Assembly (NCBI GenBank): GCA_001004005.1
Contig: LCQF01000023.1
Location: 1 to 53,116 of the forward strand
Direction: 5' to 3'
Source of the DNA: Parcubacteria group bacterium GW2011_GWA2_49_9
GTDB lineage: Bacteria > Patescibacteriota > Minisyncoccia > Phycocordibacterales > UBA10002
Length of the DNA: 53,116 nt
Shown here in pieces: positions 4,919 through 51,104 of the stretch. Under the pieces are notes generated by a model. The model searched no databases. It had not been told where the DNA came from and saw only the letters and a list, made by a program, of their open reading frames with translations. Both the position numbers and the translations under genes were made by a program. How positions within the stretch are numbered: the stretch's first letter is position 1; each line of letters begins with the position of its first letter.

Positions 4919-6019
4919 TCAACGATTCATCGGCATCACGAGATACCGGAAACTTGCGTCGCCAACCCCGCCAATAAGCAATGGCTTATTTTCTCCACTG
5001 AAACGAAAAGCGACACTGTCCGCACCGAAGGTGTTCAAACAATCCGCGATGTATCGGTGGTTGAAATTACTTGTCAGTATTTCGCCGGTGAGTGCCGCAG
5101 GGAGAGCCGAGTCACTTTCCCCAAATTCACCGCTTTTAGCGGAAAGGGAGAACTGCTTCTTTTTCGGGTCAAGCGAGAGGCGTAACTGGTTAAATCGGTC
5201 GGAGAAGAGGGTGGTGAGCTTGAGGGCCGAGAGTAGGTCTTCTTTCAGCACCACCGCCTCTGTAGCGAATTCTTTCGGCATAATCTGCCGGTAGTCGGGA
5301 AAAGACCCTTCTACGAGCCGTGTGGTGAAGAGAAGCCCTGTTCCTTCAATAGTAAGCTGTCCTTTTCCGAGCGATATCCGGATTTCATCTTTTTCTTCCT
5401 CTAACATCCTTATTATTTCTGCAACATTCTTTATGGGTATCAGTACTGGTTGGAACGAAGCGGATGTTTTCTTAAAAGGTATTTTTTTTTCCGCCAAGCG
5501 GAACGAGTCTGTCGCGACAAAAACAAGCTCCTCTCCTTCTTGGTAAATATACACACTGGAAAGTTCCGGTTTTAGATTACCCACTGCCCCCGCGTAATGT
5601 ACCGCGCGAAGACCCTTAAGGAGGAGTTGTGGGTCCATAGAAAAACTACCTCCTTCCGCCCTCGGAATAGTTGGAAAATCATCGCTTGGTGTCCCGTTAA
5701 TCGTCGCCTTCGCCCCTTGCGCCGAAACAGTAAGTTTCCCCCCATCCTCTTCAAGAAAAACCCCCTTAGCCGCGCCGAGGTTTGACACAAACGAGGTAAA
5801 AACAGCTGCGGGGACGGCTATCGTTCCCTCTTTTTCAACCTTAACCGGAATAGTGTATTCAACCCCCATATCAAGATTGGTGGAACGAATGGTAAGCGCC
5901 CCTCGTTTTGCTATAAGTAGGAGGTGCGACAAGATAGGAAGAGAGGGGTGTTTTCCCGCGAGCCGTGCCGCTTTGTTTACCACATTCTGCAACTTATCTT
6001 TTATAGCTTCTATTTTCAT
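4919..6019 (-). CDS. dnaN: DNA polymerase III beta sliding clamp
   Basis: 366 aa, immediately downstream of dnaA. N-terminus MKIEAIKDKLQNVV...LPILSHLLL and a three-domain length typical of DnaN. Confidence 0.85.
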   Translation of the reverse strand: MKIEAIKDKLQNVVNKAARLAGKHPSLPILSHLLLIAKRGALTIRSTNLDMGVEYTIPVKVEKEGTIAVPAAVFTSFVSNLGAAKGVFLEEDGGKLTVSAQGAKATINGTPSDDFPTIPRAEGGSFSMDPQLLLKGLRAVHYAGAVGNLKPELSSVYIYQEGEELVFVATDSFRLAEKKIPFKKTSASFQPVLIPIKNVAEIIRMLEEEKDEIRISLGKGQLTIEGTGLLFTTRLVEGSFPDYRQIMPKEFATEAVVLKEDLLSALKLTTLFSDRFNQLRLSLDPKKKQFSLSAKSGEFGESDSALPAALTGEILTSNFNHRYIADCLNTFGADSVAFRFSGENKPLLIGGVGDASFRYLVMPMNR

Positions 6020-6408
6020 CCCGTAGTGAAATTTCAGGTCGTTCGCCGAGGCGGACTATTCCGAGATTTCGGTTAAAACAAGAACGAGGTTTTTAATAAT
6101 AAGATGGTGTATACACTTTTTCTATAAACCTGGAATTCTACTACGGGATTCATACCAATATACACAGTCTTAGTAATCTTACATTATTTTTTATATAAGA
6201 AAGATATTATTAAAGAGGGTGTGGATACGTGGATAAGGGGTAAAAAGAGGTATGTAACAACGGGTTTTTGATTCGGTATACACATACGTTTGGGTAAAAA
6301 GGGTGAACACTGTATTTTTATTTTCCTTCGCTATTGTTTTATCAACTTTTTGTACACACAGTACTAGTCTCTTTCCACACCTTTTTCCACAGGATAGCGC
6401 GATGTGAA
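6020..6408. other. Candidate oriC module (dnaA-dnaN intergenic): DnaA-box cluster plus AT-rich stretch
   Basis: tgtggatac (6220-6228) and gtggataag (6229-6237). R2-like boxes atatacaca (6158-6166) and gtatacaca (6276-6284). tttccaca (6372-6379) and ttttccaca (6383-6391). AT-rich tract 6180-6215. Confidence 0.6.
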
Positions 6409-7818
6409 TTACAGCAGTGCTCGAATCTGATTTATTTCCTGAAGGAGGTTTGGGTCCTCCCGAATCTCATTTTTTATCTTGTCGCATGAGTGGATAACGG
6501 TCGTATGGTCTCTTCCTCCAAGTTTTTGCCCAATGAGCGGGAAAGAAACATTACAGTCTTCGCGTAAAATGTACATCACAAGCTGTCGTGGCTTCACCAC
6601 TTCCTTCCTTCTCGTCTTCTCGTAAATATGGTTCTCGTCAATGTTATAAAAGTCAGCTACGACTTTCGTAATATCCTTAATTGACAAGGCTTTTTTGGGC
6701 TTACTGGTGTTCTTGAGTATGGATTTAACCTCCAAGACACCAAGGTCGCGTCCCTTTACCTGTGTCTGCATCATAATGGAATTCAGAATACCTTCAAGTT
6801 CACGGATATTTCCTTCAAGCGCCGCAGCGATATAGTCGGCCACGTCATCTTGCAGCTGGAATTTCATCATCCGAGCCTTGGTTTTTAAGATAGAAACCCT
6901 CGATTCCCTGTCGGGTGGCGGAATATCCACAATCATTCCCGCAGCGAACCGCGACTTCAGGCGTTCCTCCAAATTCTGGATGTAGTTCGGGTGTTTGTCG
7001 GAGGAAAAAATAATTTGTTTGTTGTGGGCATATAAATCGTTAAACAAATGGAAGAGCTCTTCCTGACTCTTCTCTTTGTTGGAAAAGAACTGGATGTCGT
7101 CCATGATAAGAACGTCATACTGTCGGTATTTTTCCTTAAACTGGCTGATGCGGCTTTGCTGCATCGCGGTGACAAAGTCTTGGGAAAACTTTTCCGACGT
7201 AACGTAAAAGACCTTCTGCCCCTGAAAAGCCGCTTTAATGTGATTTCCTACCGCTTGTATAAGGTGTGTCTTGCCGTGCCCCGTAGAGCCGTAGATAAAG
7301 AGCGGGTTATACGTAATCCCCGGGGTCTTGATAATCGCAAGCGCGGCTGCGTGTGCCAGCTCGTTAAAGGGACCCACCACAAACGAGTCAAAGGTATAAC
7401 GAGGGTTAAGATTGCTTTCCTTGTCCACGTAGTAATCTTGTAACGGAAGCTCGTGGGTGAGCGAAGGAGCGGCTCCTTTTGCTCCGGGGAGGTCCCGCTT
7501 TCTCGGGTCGTCCTTGCTGACGATATATTCAAGGGCGCGCACATGCTCGGAGAGATTTCGGAGTGAACGGAGGATGAACTTATGGTATTTATTAAGGAGC
7601 CAGTCCTTTACGAACGTATTGGGAACGGCAAGATACACCACCCCCTCCTCCACTCGGGAGATAGCCGTGTCCTTAAACCACGTAGTGAAATTCGCCTTTG
7701 AGACAGAAAGTTCTATTTCGATAAGAGCACTCTCCCAAAGTTGCTTCGTGTCGCTCATGGTCACGGAACCCATTGTCGCAACGGGATGAGTATATTCTTC
7801 GCTAAACGTATCGGACAT
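6409..7818 (-). CDS. dnaA: Chromosomal replication initiator DnaA
   Basis: AAA+ Walker A GSTGHGKTHL, Walker B LIMDDIQF, C-terminal DNA-binding signature GGRDHTTVIHSCDKI. The true start may be the second MSDT at 7758. Confidence 0.92.
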   Translation of the reverse strand: MSDTFSEEYTHPVATMGSVTMSDTKQLWESALIEIELSVSKANFTTWFKDTAISRVEEGVVYLAVPNTFVKDWLLNKYHKFILRSLRNLSEHVRALEYIVSKDDPRKRDLPGAKGAAPSLTHELPLQDYYVDKESNLNPRYTFDSFVVGPFNELAHAAALAIIKTPGITYNPLFIYGSTGHGKTHLIQAVGNHIKAAFQGQKVFYVTSEKFSQDFVTAMQQSRISQFKEKYRQYDVLIMDDIQFFSNKEKSQEELFHLFNDLYAHNKQIIFSSDKHPNYIQNLEERLKSRFAAGMIVDIPPPDRESRVSILKTKARMMKFQLQDDVADYIAAALEGNIRELEGILNSIMMQTQVKGRDLGVLEVKSILKNTSKPKKALSIKDITKVVADFYNIDENHIYEKTRRKEVVKPRQLVMYILREDCNVSFPLIGQKLGGRDHTTVIHSCDKIKNEIREDPNLLQEINQIRALL

Positions 7819-7868
7819 CGTAATATTGGTTATCTGTTTTTAGATTCGGCGTGAATAAGTAGGTACAC

Positions 7869-8040
7869 GAGTCTGTCGCACTGATAAGCGCCATACTAAA
7901 AGCGGTATTAAACCCTTATATTTCGTCTTCGCTCGGACGCCATTAAACTGCAGAAGTTTTCGCGGCGCTCCTCGCTAGCCGAAATAAAGAAGATTTTTGT
8001 GGCTTGGCTACTGCGGTCCCATTATCAGTGCGACAGGCTC
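7869..8040. repeat. 19-bp inverted repeat (1 mismatch) enclosing ~134 bp, between dnaA and rpmH
   Basis: gagtctgtcgcactgataa (7869-7887) pairs with ttatcagtgcgacaggctc (8022-8040). Confidence 0.7.
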
Positions 8041-8101
8041 TAGTATATACTGATAACGAAAATACAAAACTTGTAAAAAAGGCAGTGGTATGTTAATAAT
8101 G

Positions 8102-8110
8102 TGTGGATAA
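8102..8110. promoter_or_regulatory. Perfect consensus DnaA box (TGTGGATAA = complement of TTATCCACA) upstream of dnaA
   Basis: Exact 9-mer read in the sequence. Confidence 0.7.
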
Positions 8111-8200
8111 ATAGTGCATAACTTTTGACCAGTAACCATTGACTCTTAACAAAGAAGTTTTCTTGTCAAAAGTTAAAAGTTAATAGTCAGCGGTACAATC

Positions 8201-8353
8201 ATGAGCTTCACCTATAAACCAAAAAGGAAAAAGCGAGCGCGAACGCACGGATTTCTCTCGCGTATGACGACACCGGGAGGCCGAAGCGCCCTTTCAAGGC
8301 GGCGCGCTAAGGGGCGAAAAAAGCTTACCGTGAGCAGGAAGAGAAGCTCTTAG
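8201..8353 (+). CDS. rpmH: 50S ribosomal protein L34
   Basis: Not in the ORF track (50 aa). Manual translation: [50 protein letters not shown]. Classical rpmH-rnpA-yidC-jag order. Confidence 0.9.
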
Positions 8354-8420
8354 GTTCTAGGTTCTAGCAAGACCTCTCTTTTTCTAGAAGCTCAAAGCTA
8401 GTAGCTAAAAGCTTTCCTGT
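8351..8420. repeat. CTAGAAS-theme heptamer hairpin filling the rpmH-rnpA gap
   Basis: taggttctaggttctagc ... ctagaagctcaaagctagtagctaaaagc. It runs from the rpmH stop codon to 1 nt before the rnpA ATG. Confidence 0.6.
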
Positions 8421-8762
8421 ATGCTCCCAAAAGCCAAACGTTTTACCACAGAGGATTTTAAGAAAATGCGGAAAATGCAGACCCTGCACGCTCCGCATTT
8501 TTTTATTCGCTACGCTCCGGTTCCGGCTGGAAGCGAAAAAACCGCGGTTATCGTTTCTTCCGGAACGTATAAAAGAGCGGTTGACCGCAACCTTCTTCGG
8601 CGCAGGATGTATAGTCTTGCGGCGAAACACAGCACCCACCTTGGCGGGAAGGCCTTGACGGTAACTCTAAAAAAAGGGGCGCTTGATGTGTCGTTTACCG
8701 AGTTGGAAAAGGAACTTCTGGCGTTGTTTCCCAAAAAAACGGAGCAAGGCGGGCGACCATAG
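8421..8762 (+). CDS. rnpA: Ribonuclease P protein component
   Basis: 113 aa, basic. RNR-like motif KRAVDRNLLRRR. Positioned after rpmH. Confidence 0.85.
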   Translation: MLPKAKRFTTEDFKKMRKMQTLHAPHFFIRYAPVPAGSEKTAVIVSSGTYKRAVDRNLLRRRMYSLAAKHSTHLGGKALTVTLKKGALDVSFTELEKELLALFPKKTEQGGRP

Positions 8763-8819
8763 CGGAGTAAACGGAAAGTTTGTATTTTACCCTCTTTCGT
8801 CTACAATGGGGGCATGTTT

Positions 8820-8960
8820 CCCGTAGTAGTCCGCCTAAGGCGGACAAGTTGCGGGAACTGTTCGCGGAGAGGGCCGCTTTTGCGCCCACCCAAGCCATTA
8901 TTCGCTAGCCGATTGTTTTTAGTTGTTTCCGCTGGAAACGACTTGAAATTTCACTACGGG
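8820..8960 (+). repeat. Long CCCGTAGTAG...TCACTACGGG leader hairpin abutting the yidC start codon
   Basis: Left arm cccgtagtag at 8820. Right arm tgaaatttcactacggg ends at 8960, directly before ATG 8961. The same element in the same gene-relative orientation lies at 6020-6147 before dnaN. Confidence 0.7.
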
Positions 8961-9700
8961 ATGTTTGCGATGCTGAAAGTGATTTTTTATGTCCCGCTCT
9001 ACAACGGGCTTATTTTTTTAATCGGGGTCCTTCCCGGGCACTCGGGGGCATAGCGGTCATTCTGTTCACGGTTCTCATTAAACTCCTCCTCTCCCCTCTT
9101 TCACATAAAGCGGCGAAATTTCAACTTGAAATGAAGGCGCACGAAGCTGACCTTAACCGCATTAAGGAACAATTCAAAAACGACAAGCAAGCACAGGGCA
9201 AGGCAATTATGGATTTTTATAGAGAGAAGAAGATTAATCCGTTCGCGGGAATCGCCCCTCTTTTCATACAAATTCCAATCGTTATCGCCCTCTATTATGT
9301 GTTTTATGGCGGAGGTCTTCCGGTAATAGACACAGCTCTTTTATACTCATTTGTCCCTGTGCCAACTCCCGATATGCATCTGTTTGGTGTGAATATACTG
9401 GAAAAGAGTCTCGTTCTCGCCATCCTTGCCGGTGTCGCCCAGTTTTTTCAAGCGCACTTCGCTATGCCCCCCGCTCCGCCGAAGACCAGTACCCCTTCTA
9501 TTGGCAACGACCTCGCCCGAGGGATGCATATGCAAATGAAGTATTTCCTACCGGTATTTATGGCGTTTGTCGCCTACGCCGTGAGTGGAGCAGTTGCACT
9601 TTATTTTATAACCAGTAGTCTGTTTACCATCGCTCAAGAAGTCCTTGTCCGGAGGTCACTTGCGAAGGGGCACAACCATAATGCAAATACCGCGAATTAA
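8961..9700 (+). CDS. yidC: YidC/Oxa1-family membrane insertase, interrupted by a 1-nt frameshift at a G5 run (9044-9048)
   Basis: Frame 0 gives MFAMLKVIFYVPLYNGLIFLIGVLPGHSGA*. Frame 2 continues IAVILFTVLIKLLLSPLSHKAAKFQ...INPFAGIAPLFIQIPIVIALY (ORF 9131..9700). One extra G would fuse them. Confidence 0.8.
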
Positions 9701-10709: not shown

Positions 10710-11909
10710 TTCTTTCATCTGCAAACTCCACAACGTCTCGCTTCCCTTGTCTATAAAAACAAGAAATTTTTCATCGGAGCTAACCATCGGACGAACAAGG
10801 TCAATCGGGGAACCGCGTTTCCCGCTGATGTCGGAGATGCGTTCTGTCGTACCCGAGGAAAGAGTGATGCTCCACACCTCGTCGGTAAACGGGATGACTC
10901 CTTGATACCACGAATCGGGATAACTCCCCTGCGGAATAACTTTGGGGACTCCGCAATAAACACGGTCGCCACTCTTCGCGAAAGCGCATTTTTCCGGAAA
11001 GGTTGTGACGGACAGGTCACGCGGTTGTCCGTTCGCGTTGTTAAACAAATGTAAGCTCAATGTGGAATCGGGGCTGGCGGAATACAAGATTTCCGTCTTA
11101 ACCGGACTCATTAAGGCGGTAAGTCCCGGGATACCCCGCAGAAGAATAGAGGTTCCTCCCTGTATCGGGTCAAGCAGAAGGAGCATTCCGTCGGCAAAGG
11201 CGGAAGGTTTAGAGAGTAAGAGAATCTTGTTCTCCGATGGCCAAGAAACAAGCCATTCCTTCATCGGAGACCCCCAGAGTTTTACCCTGTTTCCTCCCGC
11301 AAGGTCACTTCGTATGCCTCCAATACCGTCACTTTCTTCCTGAAGGTAAAAGAGTGAATTTCCCGCGGGGGAAACGGTCATATCGGGAAGTCCGCGAGGC
11401 AAAAAAGTCCCCAGAAGCTGTCCATCTCCCTCCGTTGCGCTTGGTTTAATTTCTGCCGAGAAAGATTCTATGGTTTCCCCTCCCTCTCTCACATAACGGG
11501 AAACAAGAGCTGTTCCGGATTTACTCCAGAGGGCTTCATATACTTTTGAAACCGTGGTATTGGTGAGGCGAATCTCTTCGTCCCCCGCCGCCCCAATCTC
11601 ATACACATTGCCGACAGACCGTTCCTGATATCGGACAATCGCTTCCCCGCTCTTGGTCCCGAGTACCGCACCGGCCACCGGCACCTTTGATAACTGGCGG
11701 AGAATCGGCTCAAATGCCCCCGAGCTTGAAGGAGGAAGGATGGTCGGTGGTTCTGTCGTTGGCGGCAACTCTTCACCCGGGGGCGGAAACTCCCCATCTC
11801 CCCCCGAAGGAAGGGGTGTTGGGCGGAAAAAGAAGTACAGAACAATACCGAGCGCCGTGAGTATGAGCACAAGACCGAGCGCTATGAGGATTTTGGTTCT
11901 TCGGGACAT
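10707..11909 (-). CDS. Membrane-anchored protein: Pro-rich linker plus probable beta-propeller-like ectodomain
   Basis: N-terminal TM (ILIALGLVLILTALGIVLYFFF), PPxx linker, then beta-rich repeats. Last gene of the T4SS-like block. Confidence 0.55.
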   Translation of the reverse strand: MSRRTKILIALGLVLILTALGIVLYFFFRPTPLPSGGDGEFPPPGEELPPTTEPPTILPPSSSGAFEPILRQLSKVPVAGAVLGTKSGEAIVRYQERSVGNVYEIGAAGDEEIRLTNTTVSKVYEALWSKSGTALVSRYVREGGETIESFSAEIKPSATEGDGQLLGTFLPRGLPDMTVSPAGNSLFYLQEESDGIGGIRSDLAGGNRVKLWGSPMKEWLVSWPSENKILLLSKPSAFADGMLLLLDPIQGGTSILLRGIPGLTALMSPVKTEILYSASPDSTLSLHLFNNANGQPRDLSVTTFPEKCAFAKSGDRVYCGVPKVIPQGSYPDSWYQGVIPFTDEVWSITLSSGTTERISDISGKRGSPIDLVRPMVSSDEKFLVFIDKGSETLWSLQMKE

Positions 11910-17949: not shown

Positions 17950-18430
17950 AAAGTACCAATCAACTAATCAGAACTAATCTACTAATACCTACGAATCAGA
18001 CCAGACGATTTTGCATTAAAGTTCTCTATCCGCACTATGCGATGAGAACGAACGTAAGTACTACCAAAATTAACCAGAATACCCAGTTTAATTCCTGTGG
18101 CCTGAAGATACCTCTGGGTTTGGACAAAGTCACCACTTGGAATAAAACGCTTGGCTTTCAGTTCAAGGATAATCTTGTCCTCTATAAGAAAGTCAACAAT
18201 GTTATTTGTATCCCCAATCCTGTACTCTCTCTTGTAAATAATGCCCGCCTCCTTTAACTTTTGTTCGAGTAGGTCGGCATATTGTTTTTCCCTTGCAAAT
18301 TTTCCCACCTCATTATGGACTTTATAGCAAAGGCCGACTACATCAAACGAAAGGTCAGGATACAGTAGTCCCACCTCTTTTTTCTTATTTGCAGGTATTT
18401 GTAGATTAGTATTCATTTGCAGATTAGTTT
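17950..18430. mobile_element. Inverted-repeat-flanked cassette carrying GxxExxY-like gene 1 (ACTAATC theme)
   Basis: Arm aactaatctactaatacctacgaatcag (17970-17998) versus the complement of atttgcaggtatttgtagattagta (18388-18412). About 22 of 25 positions match by eye. Confidence 0.45.
17982..18416 (-). CDS. GxxExxY-like PD-(D/E)XK nuclease-superfamily protein
   Basis: Start at MNTNLQ.... LLYPDLSFDVVGLCYKVHNEVGKFAREKQYADLLEQKL...IVDFLIEDKIILELKAKR...LGILVNFG. Confidence 0.75.
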   Translation of the reverse strand: MNTNLQIPANKKKEVGLLYPDLSFDVVGLCYKVHNEVGKFAREKQYADLLEQKLKEAGIIYKREYRIGDTNNIVDFLIEDKIILELKAKRFIPSGDFVQTQRYLQATGIKLGILVNFGSTYVRSHRIVRIENFNAKSSGLIRRY

Positions 18431-19080
18431 TAACTTTCTTGCACGGTCTTCTCGGTTTCCCCCGGGTTGAACAATTGATAAAAGACATCAACAACCTCTT
18501 CGGTTCCAAGTTGCGCCACCCGAACACCGGTCCGGATGAGTCCTTGTTCCACGACGCTGACGCGCTGTTCAAGCTGGGTGCGGTTTTCCTCAAAGCCCTT
18601 CGGCCCCTTTTCGGGAGAAGTATTCTTTGCGCCAAATCCCTCTTTTAGTTTCATCGCCACCCCTCCCCCACTTGCGGAAAGTTGGACGATGGCGGGAGAA
18701 TACGGAACGACGATAAAGAATGTTTTATTCATAATATTCGTTCCCTCCGTAAATTTTGTGACGAAGCCGATATATTCACGCGTCTGGAGCTTCAGTAATT
18801 CATTTTTCTGATTCTTCGCGCGTTCTTCCAGAATCGCGATGTATGGTTTGATATCAAACCGTCTGGACTGCACAATAATTTCCACGGAGAAATCAAGCGA
18901 ATTGAGGAAGTTTTGAAACTGCGAAATAATCGCCGCCTGGTTATCCTCGGATTTCAAGGCGAAATTTATGGACGACGCCATAAGTATGGCGCGTAATCCG
19001 CCGTCTTTCAGGATGACAATGCCATCCCGTATTTCACGGATTTTGACGAACTCCTGCGAAGCCTTTGATGCTATGGCCAT
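18430..19080 (-). CDS. Stand-alone VirB4-N-terminal-domain-like protein
   Basis: IREIRDGIVILKDGGLRAILMASSINFALKSEDNQAAIISQFQNFLNSLDFSVEIIVQSRRFD resembles the N-terminal domain of Gram-positive VirB4 homologues (recalled pattern, not searched). Confidence 0.5.
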   Translation of the reverse strand: MAIASKASQEFVKIREIRDGIVILKDGGLRAILMASSINFALKSEDNQAAIISQFQNFLNSLDFSVEIIVQSRRFDIKPYIAILEERAKNQKNELLKLQTREYIGFVTKFTEGTNIMNKTFFIVVPYSPAIVQLSASGGGVAMKLKEGFGAKNTSPEKGPKGFEENRTQLEQRVSVVEQGLIRTGVRVAQLGTEEVVDVFYQLFNPGETEKTVQES

Positions 19081-19110
19081 ATCATTCGAACGCTACAACT
19101 GTTTATAACT

Positions 19111-19578
19111 CATAATGCGAATGCCGCAAATACTGAATGCAAATACTGCGAATTAAGAAACACGTGAATTCAATACCCGTTTTGGATAGAGATTTTGTTG
19201 TTGAAAGTTTACGATAAGACCAAGTTTGAGATTGAGAACCGAAAGGTATCGTTGCATCTGATAGTAATCCTCTCGAGTGACGTGATGTTTGGCCTTTAAG
19301 TCAACAACTATTATACCTTCAATAACGAAATCAGGCACATTGCGCCACGCTTTTTCCCCTACAAACGATGGGGGAAGGCGTACTTCACGCGTATACGATA
19401 AGTTTGCTTTTTTTAGTCCCTCTTCAAAGGCATCGGCGTAGGATTGTTCCGTTCGAAAACGGCCCAAGTCATTGTGGACTTTAAAACAGAGTCCGTTGAT
19501 TTTGTACGATAGTTCTGGATACACCACGCCGTCGTTATTTGCAGCATTCGCATTCTTCATTTGCAGTATTTGCATTAT
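19111..19578. mobile_element. Inverted-repeat-flanked cassette carrying GxxExxY-like gene 2 (AATGCGAAT theme)
   Basis: cataatgcgaatgccgcaaatactgaatgcaaatactgcgaatta (19111-19155) versus the complement of ttatttgcagcattcgcattcttcatttgcagtatttgcattat (19535-19578). About 35 of 44 positions match by eye. Confidence 0.5.
19153..19560 (-). CDS. GxxExxY-like PD-(D/E)XK nuclease-superfamily protein (paralogue of 17982..18416)
   Basis: VVYPELSYKINGLCFKVHNDLGRFRTEQSYADAFEEGL...VPDFVIEGIIVVDLKAKH...LGLIVNF. Start is uncertain (19560 or 19575). Confidence 0.75.
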   Translation of the reverse strand: MKNANAANNDGVVYPELSYKINGLCFKVHNDLGRFRTEQSYADAFEEGLKKANLSYTREVRLPPSFVGEKAWRNVPDFVIEGIIVVDLKAKHHVTREDYYQMQRYLSVLNLKLGLIVNFQQQNLYPKRVLNSRVS

Positions 19579-32943: not shown

Positions 32944-32979
32944 CCCGTAGTGAGAAATTCTGATTTCTCTACTACTGGG
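32944..32979. repeat. Short CCCGTAGTGA...CTACTACTGGG hairpin
   Basis: cccgtagtgagaaattctgatttctctactactggg. Confidence 0.7.
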
Positions 32980-50388: not shown

Positions 50389-50880
50389 GTGGGGAAGACA
50401 CAGAAAACTGGTTCGCTCGGTGAAGAACTTGTAACAATGTTTCTTATGAAACGAGGGTACACGATTCTTCATCGGAATTATAGAAGGCCGTGGGGTGAGT
50501 TGGATGTCGTTGCTGTGAAGAAAAATAAAATTCACTTTGTTGAGGTGAAAGCGATGTCACGGGGGTTTGTTTCAGATGAAACCCGCTTGCCCCGTAGTGA
50601 ACCGAGTCCGCGAGGTTCTACTACTGGGGTTTCATCAGAAACATCCGGTCGTGAAAAGGCGTTGGCATACGTGCACTCTGGGATAAAGAAAGATCGCTTC
50701 AGGGCGGAGGATAATGTGAATGCTGTAAAAATGAAGCGATTAGGCCGTATAATACAGACCTATTTGGGTGCGGAACATGTTTCATCTGAAACAAACTGGC
50801 AGTTTGATGTGGCAACGGTATATATAGACGGTACACAGAAGAAAGCAAAAATAAATTTTATGGAGGACCTCATTTTGTGA
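50389..50880 (+). CDS. YraN/UPF0102-family endonuclease-like protein with an in-frame palindromic insertion
   Basis: GSLGEELVTMFLMKRGYTILHRNYRRPWGELDVVA...IHFVEVKA...QFDVATVYI. Insertion ~50569-50642 (VSDETRLPRSEPSPRGSTTGVSSET). GTG start. Confidence 0.7.
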   Translation: MGKTQKTGSLGEELVTMFLMKRGYTILHRNYRRPWGELDVVAVKKNKIHFVEVKAMSRGFVSDETRLPRSEPSPRGSTTGVSSETSGREKALAYVHSGIKKDRFRAEDNVNAVKMKRLGRIIQTYLGAEHVSSETNWQFDVATVYIDGTQKKAKINFMEDLIL

Positions 50881-51064: not shown

Positions 51065-51104
51065 CCCCGTAGTGAATCGAGTCTTCAAGATTCTACTACT
51101 GGGG
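51065..51104. repeat. Short CCCCGTAGTGA...CTACTACTGGGG hairpin
   Basis: ccccgtagtgaatcgagtcttcaagattctactactgggg. Near-identical arms to the copy inside the YraN gene (50590-50629). Confidence 0.75.

Follow-up and report, generated by a model that had tools for sequence, protein, structure and literature searches.

Hairpin elements upstream of dnaN and yidC

The window analysed here is a whole contig of 53,116 nucleotides (C23) from the Parcubacteria-type genome of a groundwater bacterium, 910 kb in 44 contigs (G000; 49% G+C, 92% complete). Two of its genes, dnaN and yidC, were found to be preceded by an identical 17-mer, TGAAATTTCACTACGGG, which lies directly 5' of the ATG in both cases (6020-6036 on the minus strand for dnaN and 8944-8960 on the plus strand for yidC), as the first reading of the sequence had it. 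The minus strand reads ...GAACGACCTGAAATTTCACTACGGG at 6020-6045 and continues with the ATG of dnaN, and the plus strand reads ...AAACGACTTGAAATTTCACTACGGG at 8935-8960 and continues with the ATG of yidC at 8961. Beyond the shared 17-mer, the two boxes agree at six out of seven further bases. Allowing up to three mismatches, three matches to the 17-mer occur in the window compared to 0.21 expected, and none of 100 shuffled sequences gave three. The partner arm CCCGTAGTAG is located 128 nt upstream of dnaN (6138-6147, minus strand) and 141 nt upstream of yidC (8820-8829, plus strand). The two copies represent one element type with identical orientation relative to the gene, in line with the first reading of the sequence.

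A long leader hairpin had been proposed for both genes. It was found with its full stem of about 20 base pairs in the dnaN copy (RNA fold of -38.7 kcal/mol, z = -3.9), whereas the yidC copy retains no more than the outer 8-9 base pairs because its 5' arm is rearranged beyond CCCGTAGTAG. The base of the stem does extend to the start codon, with the A and U of the dnaN AUG being paired in the predicted fold. The positions of all annotated features are given in Table 1.

Table 1. Annotated features in the window (positions of the whole stretch; strand as read).
Feature	Position	Strand	Remark
dnaN, 366 aa	4919..6019	-	ATG 6017-6019 adjoins element
Right duplicate ATGAAA (dnaN start)	6014-6019	-	
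Long hairpin element copy, dnaN	6020..6147	-	128 nt
3' arm of dnaN copy	6020-6039	-	
Small inner hairpin GTCCGCCTCGGCGAAC of dnaN copy	6041-6056	-	
Weak promoter-like site TAGAAA-17-TATTAT within dnaN copy	6096..6124	-	
5' arm of dnaN copy	6128-6147	-	
Left (old) duplicate of dnaN start region, ATGAAT	6148..6153	-	
Native yidC -10 box TACAAT	8802..8807	+	6 nt 5' of old ATG; leaderless promoter
Left duplicate ATGTTT at yidC	8814..8819	+	
Long hairpin element copy, yidC	8820..8960	+	141 nt
Right duplicate ATGTTT (yidC start)	8961-8966	+	
Family-B hairpin	32944..32978	-	between convergent genes
Family-B hairpin	50591..50627	-	in frame in YraN-like ORF 50389-50880
Family-B hairpin	51066..51102	-	intergenic

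The spacer between dnaA and dnaN (6148-6408) contains TTATCCACA-type DnaA boxes that are conserved throughout the genus, and the dnaN element is therefore positioned at the edge of the presumed replication origin. The yidC gene is interrupted at 9040-9053 by a one-base deletion (tcgggggcaTAG in G000, tcaGTGGGGatc or similar in the relatives, encoding ..GHSVGIAV..), so that the 30 N-terminal codons are in one frame and the other 217 in another. Since the genome contains only one yidC, a true pseudogene is less likely here than an assembly error or a variant within the population.

Three short hairpins at 32944, 50590 and 51065 had been taken as short versions of the long hairpin. All three exist, but as members of a separate, related family of short hairpins that is not placed at start codons. 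This family, termed family B, has the form CCCCAGTAGTAGAA-N12-16-TTCACTACGGGG and about ten copies were found in the genome. The YraN-like protein that contains one of them is about 40 residues longer than usual because translation runs in frame through the short hairpin repeat and the sequence around it. An Rfam 15 E-value scan of 5800-9200 placed no family on the long elements, and its two matches elsewhere were at chance level. The GxxExxY-type cassettes at 17950-19578 were rejected as relatives, as their termini are unrelated to the long element.

Genomic copies and target duplications

A total of six elements of 128-141 nt were found in the genome, all of which start with CCCGTAGTAGAATTTCA, end with TGAAATTTCACTACGGG and are followed by an ATG. 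A gene-specific duplicate of the start region is located 5' of each copy (ATGAA, ATGTTT, ATGAAT, ATGAA, ATGGAA and ATG). Besides the flanks at dnaN and yidC (Table 1), the left and right flanks are ATGAAT and ATGAAT in copy C8a, ATGAAT and ATGAAG in copy C8b, ATGGAAT and ATGGAAC in copy C44, and ATGT and ATGAAC in copy C13. The ATG of a real gene adjoins five of the six copies and only one is found elsewhere, i.e., the motif does not occur mostly away from start codons. Long genes follow four of the copies (dnaN, yidC, a sugar transferase gene and a substrate-binding protein gene), whereas a fifth is followed by a 25-aa ORF that is conserved in a relative. The sixth (contig C8, 30148-30275) sits between convergent gene ends where its ATGAA is no start codon, and the target is therefore not strictly a functional start.

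The 25-aa ORF (contig C8, 28773-28847, minus strand) encodes a very basic peptide, MNKKEKHARKKQRKKHGKKIQVRHR, with 24 of 25 residues shared with G002, and all nucleotide differences within the 24 nt comparable are synonymous; it is probably a real small gene. Two adjacent near-perfect palindromes of another repeat type, ctgtagaagttaaacctctacag and ctgtagaggtttaacttctaca, were observed beside an element copy on the same contig (29005-29062). A composite transposon made of the two inverted copies on this contig was rejected, as the intervening 1.17 kb encodes a beta-lactamase-like hydrolase and no transposase.

Comparison with relatives revealed orthologous sites without the element. The yidC site is empty in G009 and G010, where it reads ..tctacaatggggg(g/a)ATGTTTGC.., and in G000 it is filled, with ..tctacaatgggggcATGTTT followed by the 141-nt element and ATGTTTGC... 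Similarly, the sugar-transferase gene has an empty site in G010 (..caaccactATGTTCTCACAT) and a filled site in G009 (..caaccactATGT, the element, then ATATGTTCTCACAT). The dnaN site is empty in G009 (..ttattggtatttATGAAAATAG) and in six other genomes. Among these same-genus loci, the insertion is clean at yidC and at the sugar-transferase gene and less clean at dnaN. The dnaN copy of G000 is shared with G002, where the interior is homologous, the 5' arm and the old promoter are lost and the 3' half remains; the closer relatives G009 and G010 have no copy. The presence of the element thus does not match relatedness, which indicates that copies are also lost cleanly or exchanged.

These comparisons show that the long element is an insertion which duplicates a short piece of its target (4-6 bp), beginning at the start codon or one nucleotide inside it. 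As a result of the duplication, one intact start codon adjoins the 3' arm while the old copy decays upstream of the element, and the intact start codon left behind explains why even essential genes can carry the element. The long element is a short non-coding repeat, present in several copies and with terminal inverted repeats, and target-site duplication together with empty sites in relatives was found at yidC, dnaN and the sugar-transferase gene, all of which are properties of transposable elements of the miniature inverted-repeat type (MITEs). A leader dedicated to dnaN and yidC, as first envisaged, is not what the empty sites and the duplications show; the two copies are rather among six genomic copies of a mobile insertion. 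We consider it probable, with good confidence, that the element is mobile, non-autonomous and MITE-like, with the 17-mer as the 3' terminal arm of its hairpin and with the ends (T)CCCGTAGTAGAATTTCAGG... and ...CCTGAAATTTCACTACGGG(A).

Target sites in related genomes

The 17-mer is present in 20 out of 61 related genomes with a patchy distribution. It was also found in other Patescibacteria records, including a 701-kb contig (JBBTWE010000001.1) with at least ten copies. About 29 different genes in the relatives carry a copy exactly at the start codon, either ATG or GTG, with two exceptions, and the register at about 29 genes is exact within 0-2 nt. Among the carrier genes are rplI and rpmI, one that resembles ribonucleotide reductase, and genes whose products are membrane and sugar enzymes. 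The reverse orientation was found for five copies, two of them on a GTG start (left GTGTAC and right GTGTAT in gene orientation).

A sister lineage of elements shares the outer 12-14 nt of the long element and differs in the inner arms. In its copies the left flank is xTTGAC and the right flank GTTGAC. A TANNNT -10 box is found 16-18 nt downstream of the TTGAC at ten of the twelve sites, with near matches at two more, and this spacing indicates that the sister-lineage copies sit in real -35 boxes. At one locus (L050, contig C74 of G008) two tandem copies of this lineage share one GTTGAC; here a copy is inserted into the -35 box that was rebuilt by the previous copy.

The left x in the sister lineage is C, A or G and mostly not G, whereas the right copy always has G, so that the last base is the element's own and not part of the duplication. 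In the start-codon copies, a T precedes CCCG and an A follows GGG in nearly all cases. The most economical model is an element N-CCCGTAG...CTACGGG-N' with T..A or C..G as its end bases and a duplication of 4-5 bp (TGAA, TGTT, TGGA(A), TATG or TTGA), although 5-6 bp is also possible. Under this model the last base of the element completes the start codon. The model is supported by a full-length copy whose left flank is ATGAC and whose right flank is a rebuilt GTGATT.., and some left junctions are shifted by one base.

A -10 box at leaderless spacing was found at 11 of the 31 target sites compared to roughly 19% genome-wide. Leaderless starts thus appear to be favoured but not required, and leaderless genes as a strict target requirement were rejected on the same count.

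The element thus inserts at many unrelated genes, in both orientations and on both ATG and GTG, and a sister lineage does so at TTGAC -35 boxes. As an alternative to target choice, insertion might be nearly random with a weak T-rich 4-mer as target, the bias towards starts and -35 boxes reflecting sites that are harmless and that cannot be lost by imprecise deletion in a compact, deletion-biased genome. This would agree with the diverse duplicated 4-mers (TGAA, TGTT, TGGA, TGCA, TATG, TTGA and TACA), with most insertions being old and common to several species, and with the one copy at a non-start ATGAA. We regard it as unlikely, however, given the exact register at so many genes and the rough estimate from our crude gene set that intergenic ATGs should exceed start codons several-fold. 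In addition, different arms are associated with different targets (start codons or TTGAC), which points to target choice. These lineage-specific targets argue for target choice, to which the survival of signal-rebuilding insertions surely adds.

Full-length elements carrying a nuclease gene

Two elements of 317 and 318 nt (on contig C2 of G008 and contig C23 of G033) were found to share the ends of the long element (CCCGTAGTAGAATTTTA... and ...TAAAATTTCACTACGGG), and both are placed on start codons. Their sole gene encodes a protein of 89-92 aa consisting of a bare GIY-YIG domain (Pfam GIY-YIG, E = 4e-19 and 9e-18). In a PDB sequence search, the best solved relative of this nuclease was the UPF0213 protein EF2693 (1ywl, E = 3e-7), followed by SLX1. 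The GIY-YIG nuclease of these same-ended elements corresponds to no known transposase class. Small GIY-YIG genes of this kind are present in 48 of the 61 relatives, many of them inside other hairpin-bounded units of about 280 nt with ends starting CCCG...

A cognate nuclease with the arms of the long element was not found in the 92%-complete G000. Two small GIY-YIG genes of this genome were considered for the role and rejected, one being enclosed by CCCTGTTAAAT hairpins and the other located beside a tRNA. The former is an 87-aa gene in a unit of about 385 nt (contig C16, ~11000-11390) bounded by the hairpins CCCTGTTAAAT... and ...ATTTAACAGGG, which represents a sister type; its protein is 46% identical to the nuclease of the 317-nt element.

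The architecture of the full-length elements and the analogy with Ssn nucleases (PMC11893778) suggest a link between the nuclease and movement. A different source of mobility was also considered, namely that the copies are REP/REPIN-type repeats serviced by the RAYT-like Y1 transposases of G000. The genome has three Y1_Tnp genes, and the long element has a GTAG near the foot of its hairpin, as REPs do. None of the three genes is flanked by CCCGTAGTAG hairpins, however, REPs occur without target duplication, and the putatively autonomous relatives carry a GIY-YIG gene and not Y1, which leaves this explanation highly improbable.

Conservation of the stem

The arms pair over 20 positions in the 37 distinct copies analysed. 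In all of these copies pair 9 is A.C and pair 10 is G.T, while seven stem positions show multiple types of Watson-Crick pair. Between orthologous copies, defined as those with a homologous interior, the arms are 91-100% identical compared to 58-82% for the interior, 41-86% for the upstream spacer and 56-85% for the first 40 nt of the gene. Two compensatory double changes were observed in situ, one at pair 8 (T-A in G000, C-G in G002) and another at pair 13 (T-A in G008, C-G in G002). The invariant mismatch together with the maintained pairing fits recognition by a protein of a single strand in its folded form. Both features also suggest that the host needs the fold after insertion, and the strong conservation of the arms in situ is not what would be expected of a dead passenger.

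The 3' arm is preceded by a small hairpin and by a conserved motif rich in purines, GGA(T/A)AGT. In three copies on JBBTWE010000001.1 (L107, L112 and L114), the small inner hairpin of the element is a complete short hairpin of the family-B type, CCCGTAGTAGAAGCGAAGCTTTCACTACGGG, so that the long element there looks like a hairpin nested in a hairpin.

Translation starts and expression of dnaN and yidC

The start codons of G000 show no Shine-Dalgarno (SD) enrichment in our crude gene set, and a sharp peak of TANNNT (-10) was observed 6-7 nt upstream. Leaderless genes are therefore common and the lack of an SD is the rule. The earlier observation that neither start has an SD is correct in itself, but it does not set dnaN and yidC apart from the rest of the genome. 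Judged by these motifs, translation initiation in G000 appears to be largely SD-independent and often leaderless.

Within the genus, TAGAAT or TACAAT followed by 6 nt and the ATG of yidC was found in 11 of 12 readable upstream regions, with G016 as the exception, which indicates that yidC was leaderless already before the insertion. In G000, the native promoter now faces the old ATGTTT, which lies 147 nt upstream of the gene. The element copy at yidC consists of 47 stop-free codons in the same frame as yidC, so translation from the old start could add 49 residues; such an open copy could also arise by chance, with a probability of roughly 10% by a rough estimate.

In the dnaN copy, a promoter-like TAGAAA-17-TATTAT was found, although such sites are no more numerous there than in shuffles. 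Its TTATTAT block is kept in the 5'-truncated copy of G002, which suggests that an internal promoter can serve dnaN and that the hairpin is not indispensable. G002 presumably expresses dnaN from this copy without a 5' arm, which would speak against an absolute need for the hairpin. Two further routes were rejected. A promoter in the 3' arm giving a leaderless transcript would require a TANNNT at -12/-13 before the ATG, and none is present there. Translational coupling through the stop of an upstream ORF near the gene ATG does not agree with element lengths that differ modulo 3 and with the varied ORF ends.

An rnc gene encoding RNase III is present in G000 (contig C39, 815-1207), and cleavage of the 20-bp helix is therefore possible. 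Since pairing is maintained in situ and this gene is present, occlusion of initiation or cleavage to a leaderless or near-leaderless mRNA is plausible. In its strong form, this would make the element a host regulatory leader in which the hairpin governs initiation at both dnaN and yidC, through sequestration of the AUG or through cleavage at the hairpin base (e.g., by RNase III) to yield a near-leaderless mRNA. The pairing of the A and U of the AUG in the stable dnaN fold, the compensatory changes and the richness of the genome in leaderless genes all speak for such a role, as does the helix itself, since 20 base pairs with a central mismatch resemble an RNase III substrate and the rnc gene is at hand. 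Yet the empty sites in close relatives show that the element is dispensable for these genes, the genes that carry copies have unrelated functions, most of the stem is lost in the yidC copy, G002 dnaN retains the 3' half only, and the full-length relatives contain a nuclease gene. We therefore find a regulatory leader quite improbable as the primary explanation. A regulatory role for dnaN or yidC is at best a secondary consequence of a mobile element.

Proposed mechanism and significance

In the mobile-element reading that we prefer, the nuclease would act like the Ssn nucleases in recognising the hairpin folded from a single strand, and would drive excision and insertion, with the joining possibly left to host repair. 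The copies in G000 would have been moved in trans or may be relics. Their concentration at start codons would reflect a real choice of target together with the survival of those insertions in which the signal is restored. In the cases of dnaN and yidC, a passenger element would separate the gene from its old promoter, and three routes of expression can be envisaged. Transcription may read through from the old promoter, the hairpin being looped out or processed; a promoter may lie within the AT-rich interior (dnaN); or translation may run in frame through the element (possible for yidC).

A literature search returned no description of hairpin elements that target start codons. It is possible, and we offer this only tentatively, that the hairpin-bounded GIY-YIG units and their gene-less derivatives form an undescribed class of transposable elements which home to start codons and -35 boxes and rebuild them. 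The RNA hairpin would then be kept by host-level selection, since its folding (by looping out or by cutting, e.g., by RNase III) would be needed for translation of the downstream, often leaderless gene, and the element would act as a ligation-free intron of the mRNA 5' end.

If start codons and -35 boxes are truly chosen, the target specificity would be of a kind new for mobile DNA, and selfish DNA would have a way to live at the positions of a minimal genome that are under the tightest constraint. Small GIY-YIG nucleases of the Ssn type, outside Neisseria, would also gain a role as movers of hairpin elements. For annotation, it matters that inserts of this kind are routinely found in front of start codons and 5' ends in CPR genomes, one copy here lying in the presumed oriC spacer. 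The elements also provide a natural test bed for the tolerance of leaderless or SD-less genes to a structured insert of 130 nt.

Comparison with known systems

The Correia/NEMIS elements of Neisseria are MITEs of roughly 100-150 bp that are non-autonomous and have terminal inverted repeats and a target duplication, and the long element resembles them in all of these respects, including its size class. They are often found beside gene starts and are transcribed within mRNAs, where their hairpins are cut by RNase III. Correia elements duplicate TA, whereas the long element shows a 4-6-bp duplication at the start codon, an invariant stem mismatch and a GIY-YIG partner rather than a DDE transposase. 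To our knowledge, Correia elements derive from no known nuclease element.

Rickettsia palindromic elements (RPEs) are small palindromic repeats that occur in frame inside coding sequences. The elements described here are likewise small palindromic repeats tolerated in or at the edge of essential genes, and a family-B copy lies in frame in YraN. We know of neither start-codon targeting nor a nuclease-bearing parent for RPEs.

The intervening sequences of 23S rRNA are inserts that are removed by RNase III. The long element has in common with them a long base helix that could let the host cut the insert from the RNA without ligation; a helix of about 20 bp in the predicted transcript and an rnc gene in the genome were both found. 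It differs in that the target is the 5' end of an mRNA and not rRNA.

The IS200/IS605 and REP/RAYT systems use a Y1 HUH enzyme, have subterminal hairpins and make no target duplication. In these systems, imperfect hairpins in single-stranded DNA are recognised and miniature palindromic derivatives exist (cited in PMC11893778). In the elements described here, by contrast, the hairpin is terminal, and the Y1 genes of G000 are not associated with long-element hairpins.

The closest parallel in layout is found in the Ssn nucleases, GIY-YIG proteins of about 94 aa that cut only single-stranded DNA beside a hairpin repeat which flanks their gene and litters the genome (PMC11893778). Chenal et al. 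(2025) note that this repeat-gene-repeat layout is IS-like and raise mobility as a hypothesis only (PMC11893778); the terms 'start codon', 'MITE' and 'Patescibacteria' do not occur in that paper. As in Ssn with its NTS/SRM repeats (SsnA of Neisseria meningitidis; PMC11893778), we observed a single-domain GIY-YIG protein of about 90 aa with hairpin repeats on both sides and a repeat that is scattered genome-wide, the proteins here having 89-92 aa with arms on either side. The likeness to the Ssn clade (cd10448) is one of layout and domain, the best solved relative being UPF0213 EF2693. Unlike in Ssn, the arms enclose the gene as a single unit of about 300 nt, and the gene-less derivatives duplicate their target and sit on start codons or -35 boxes.
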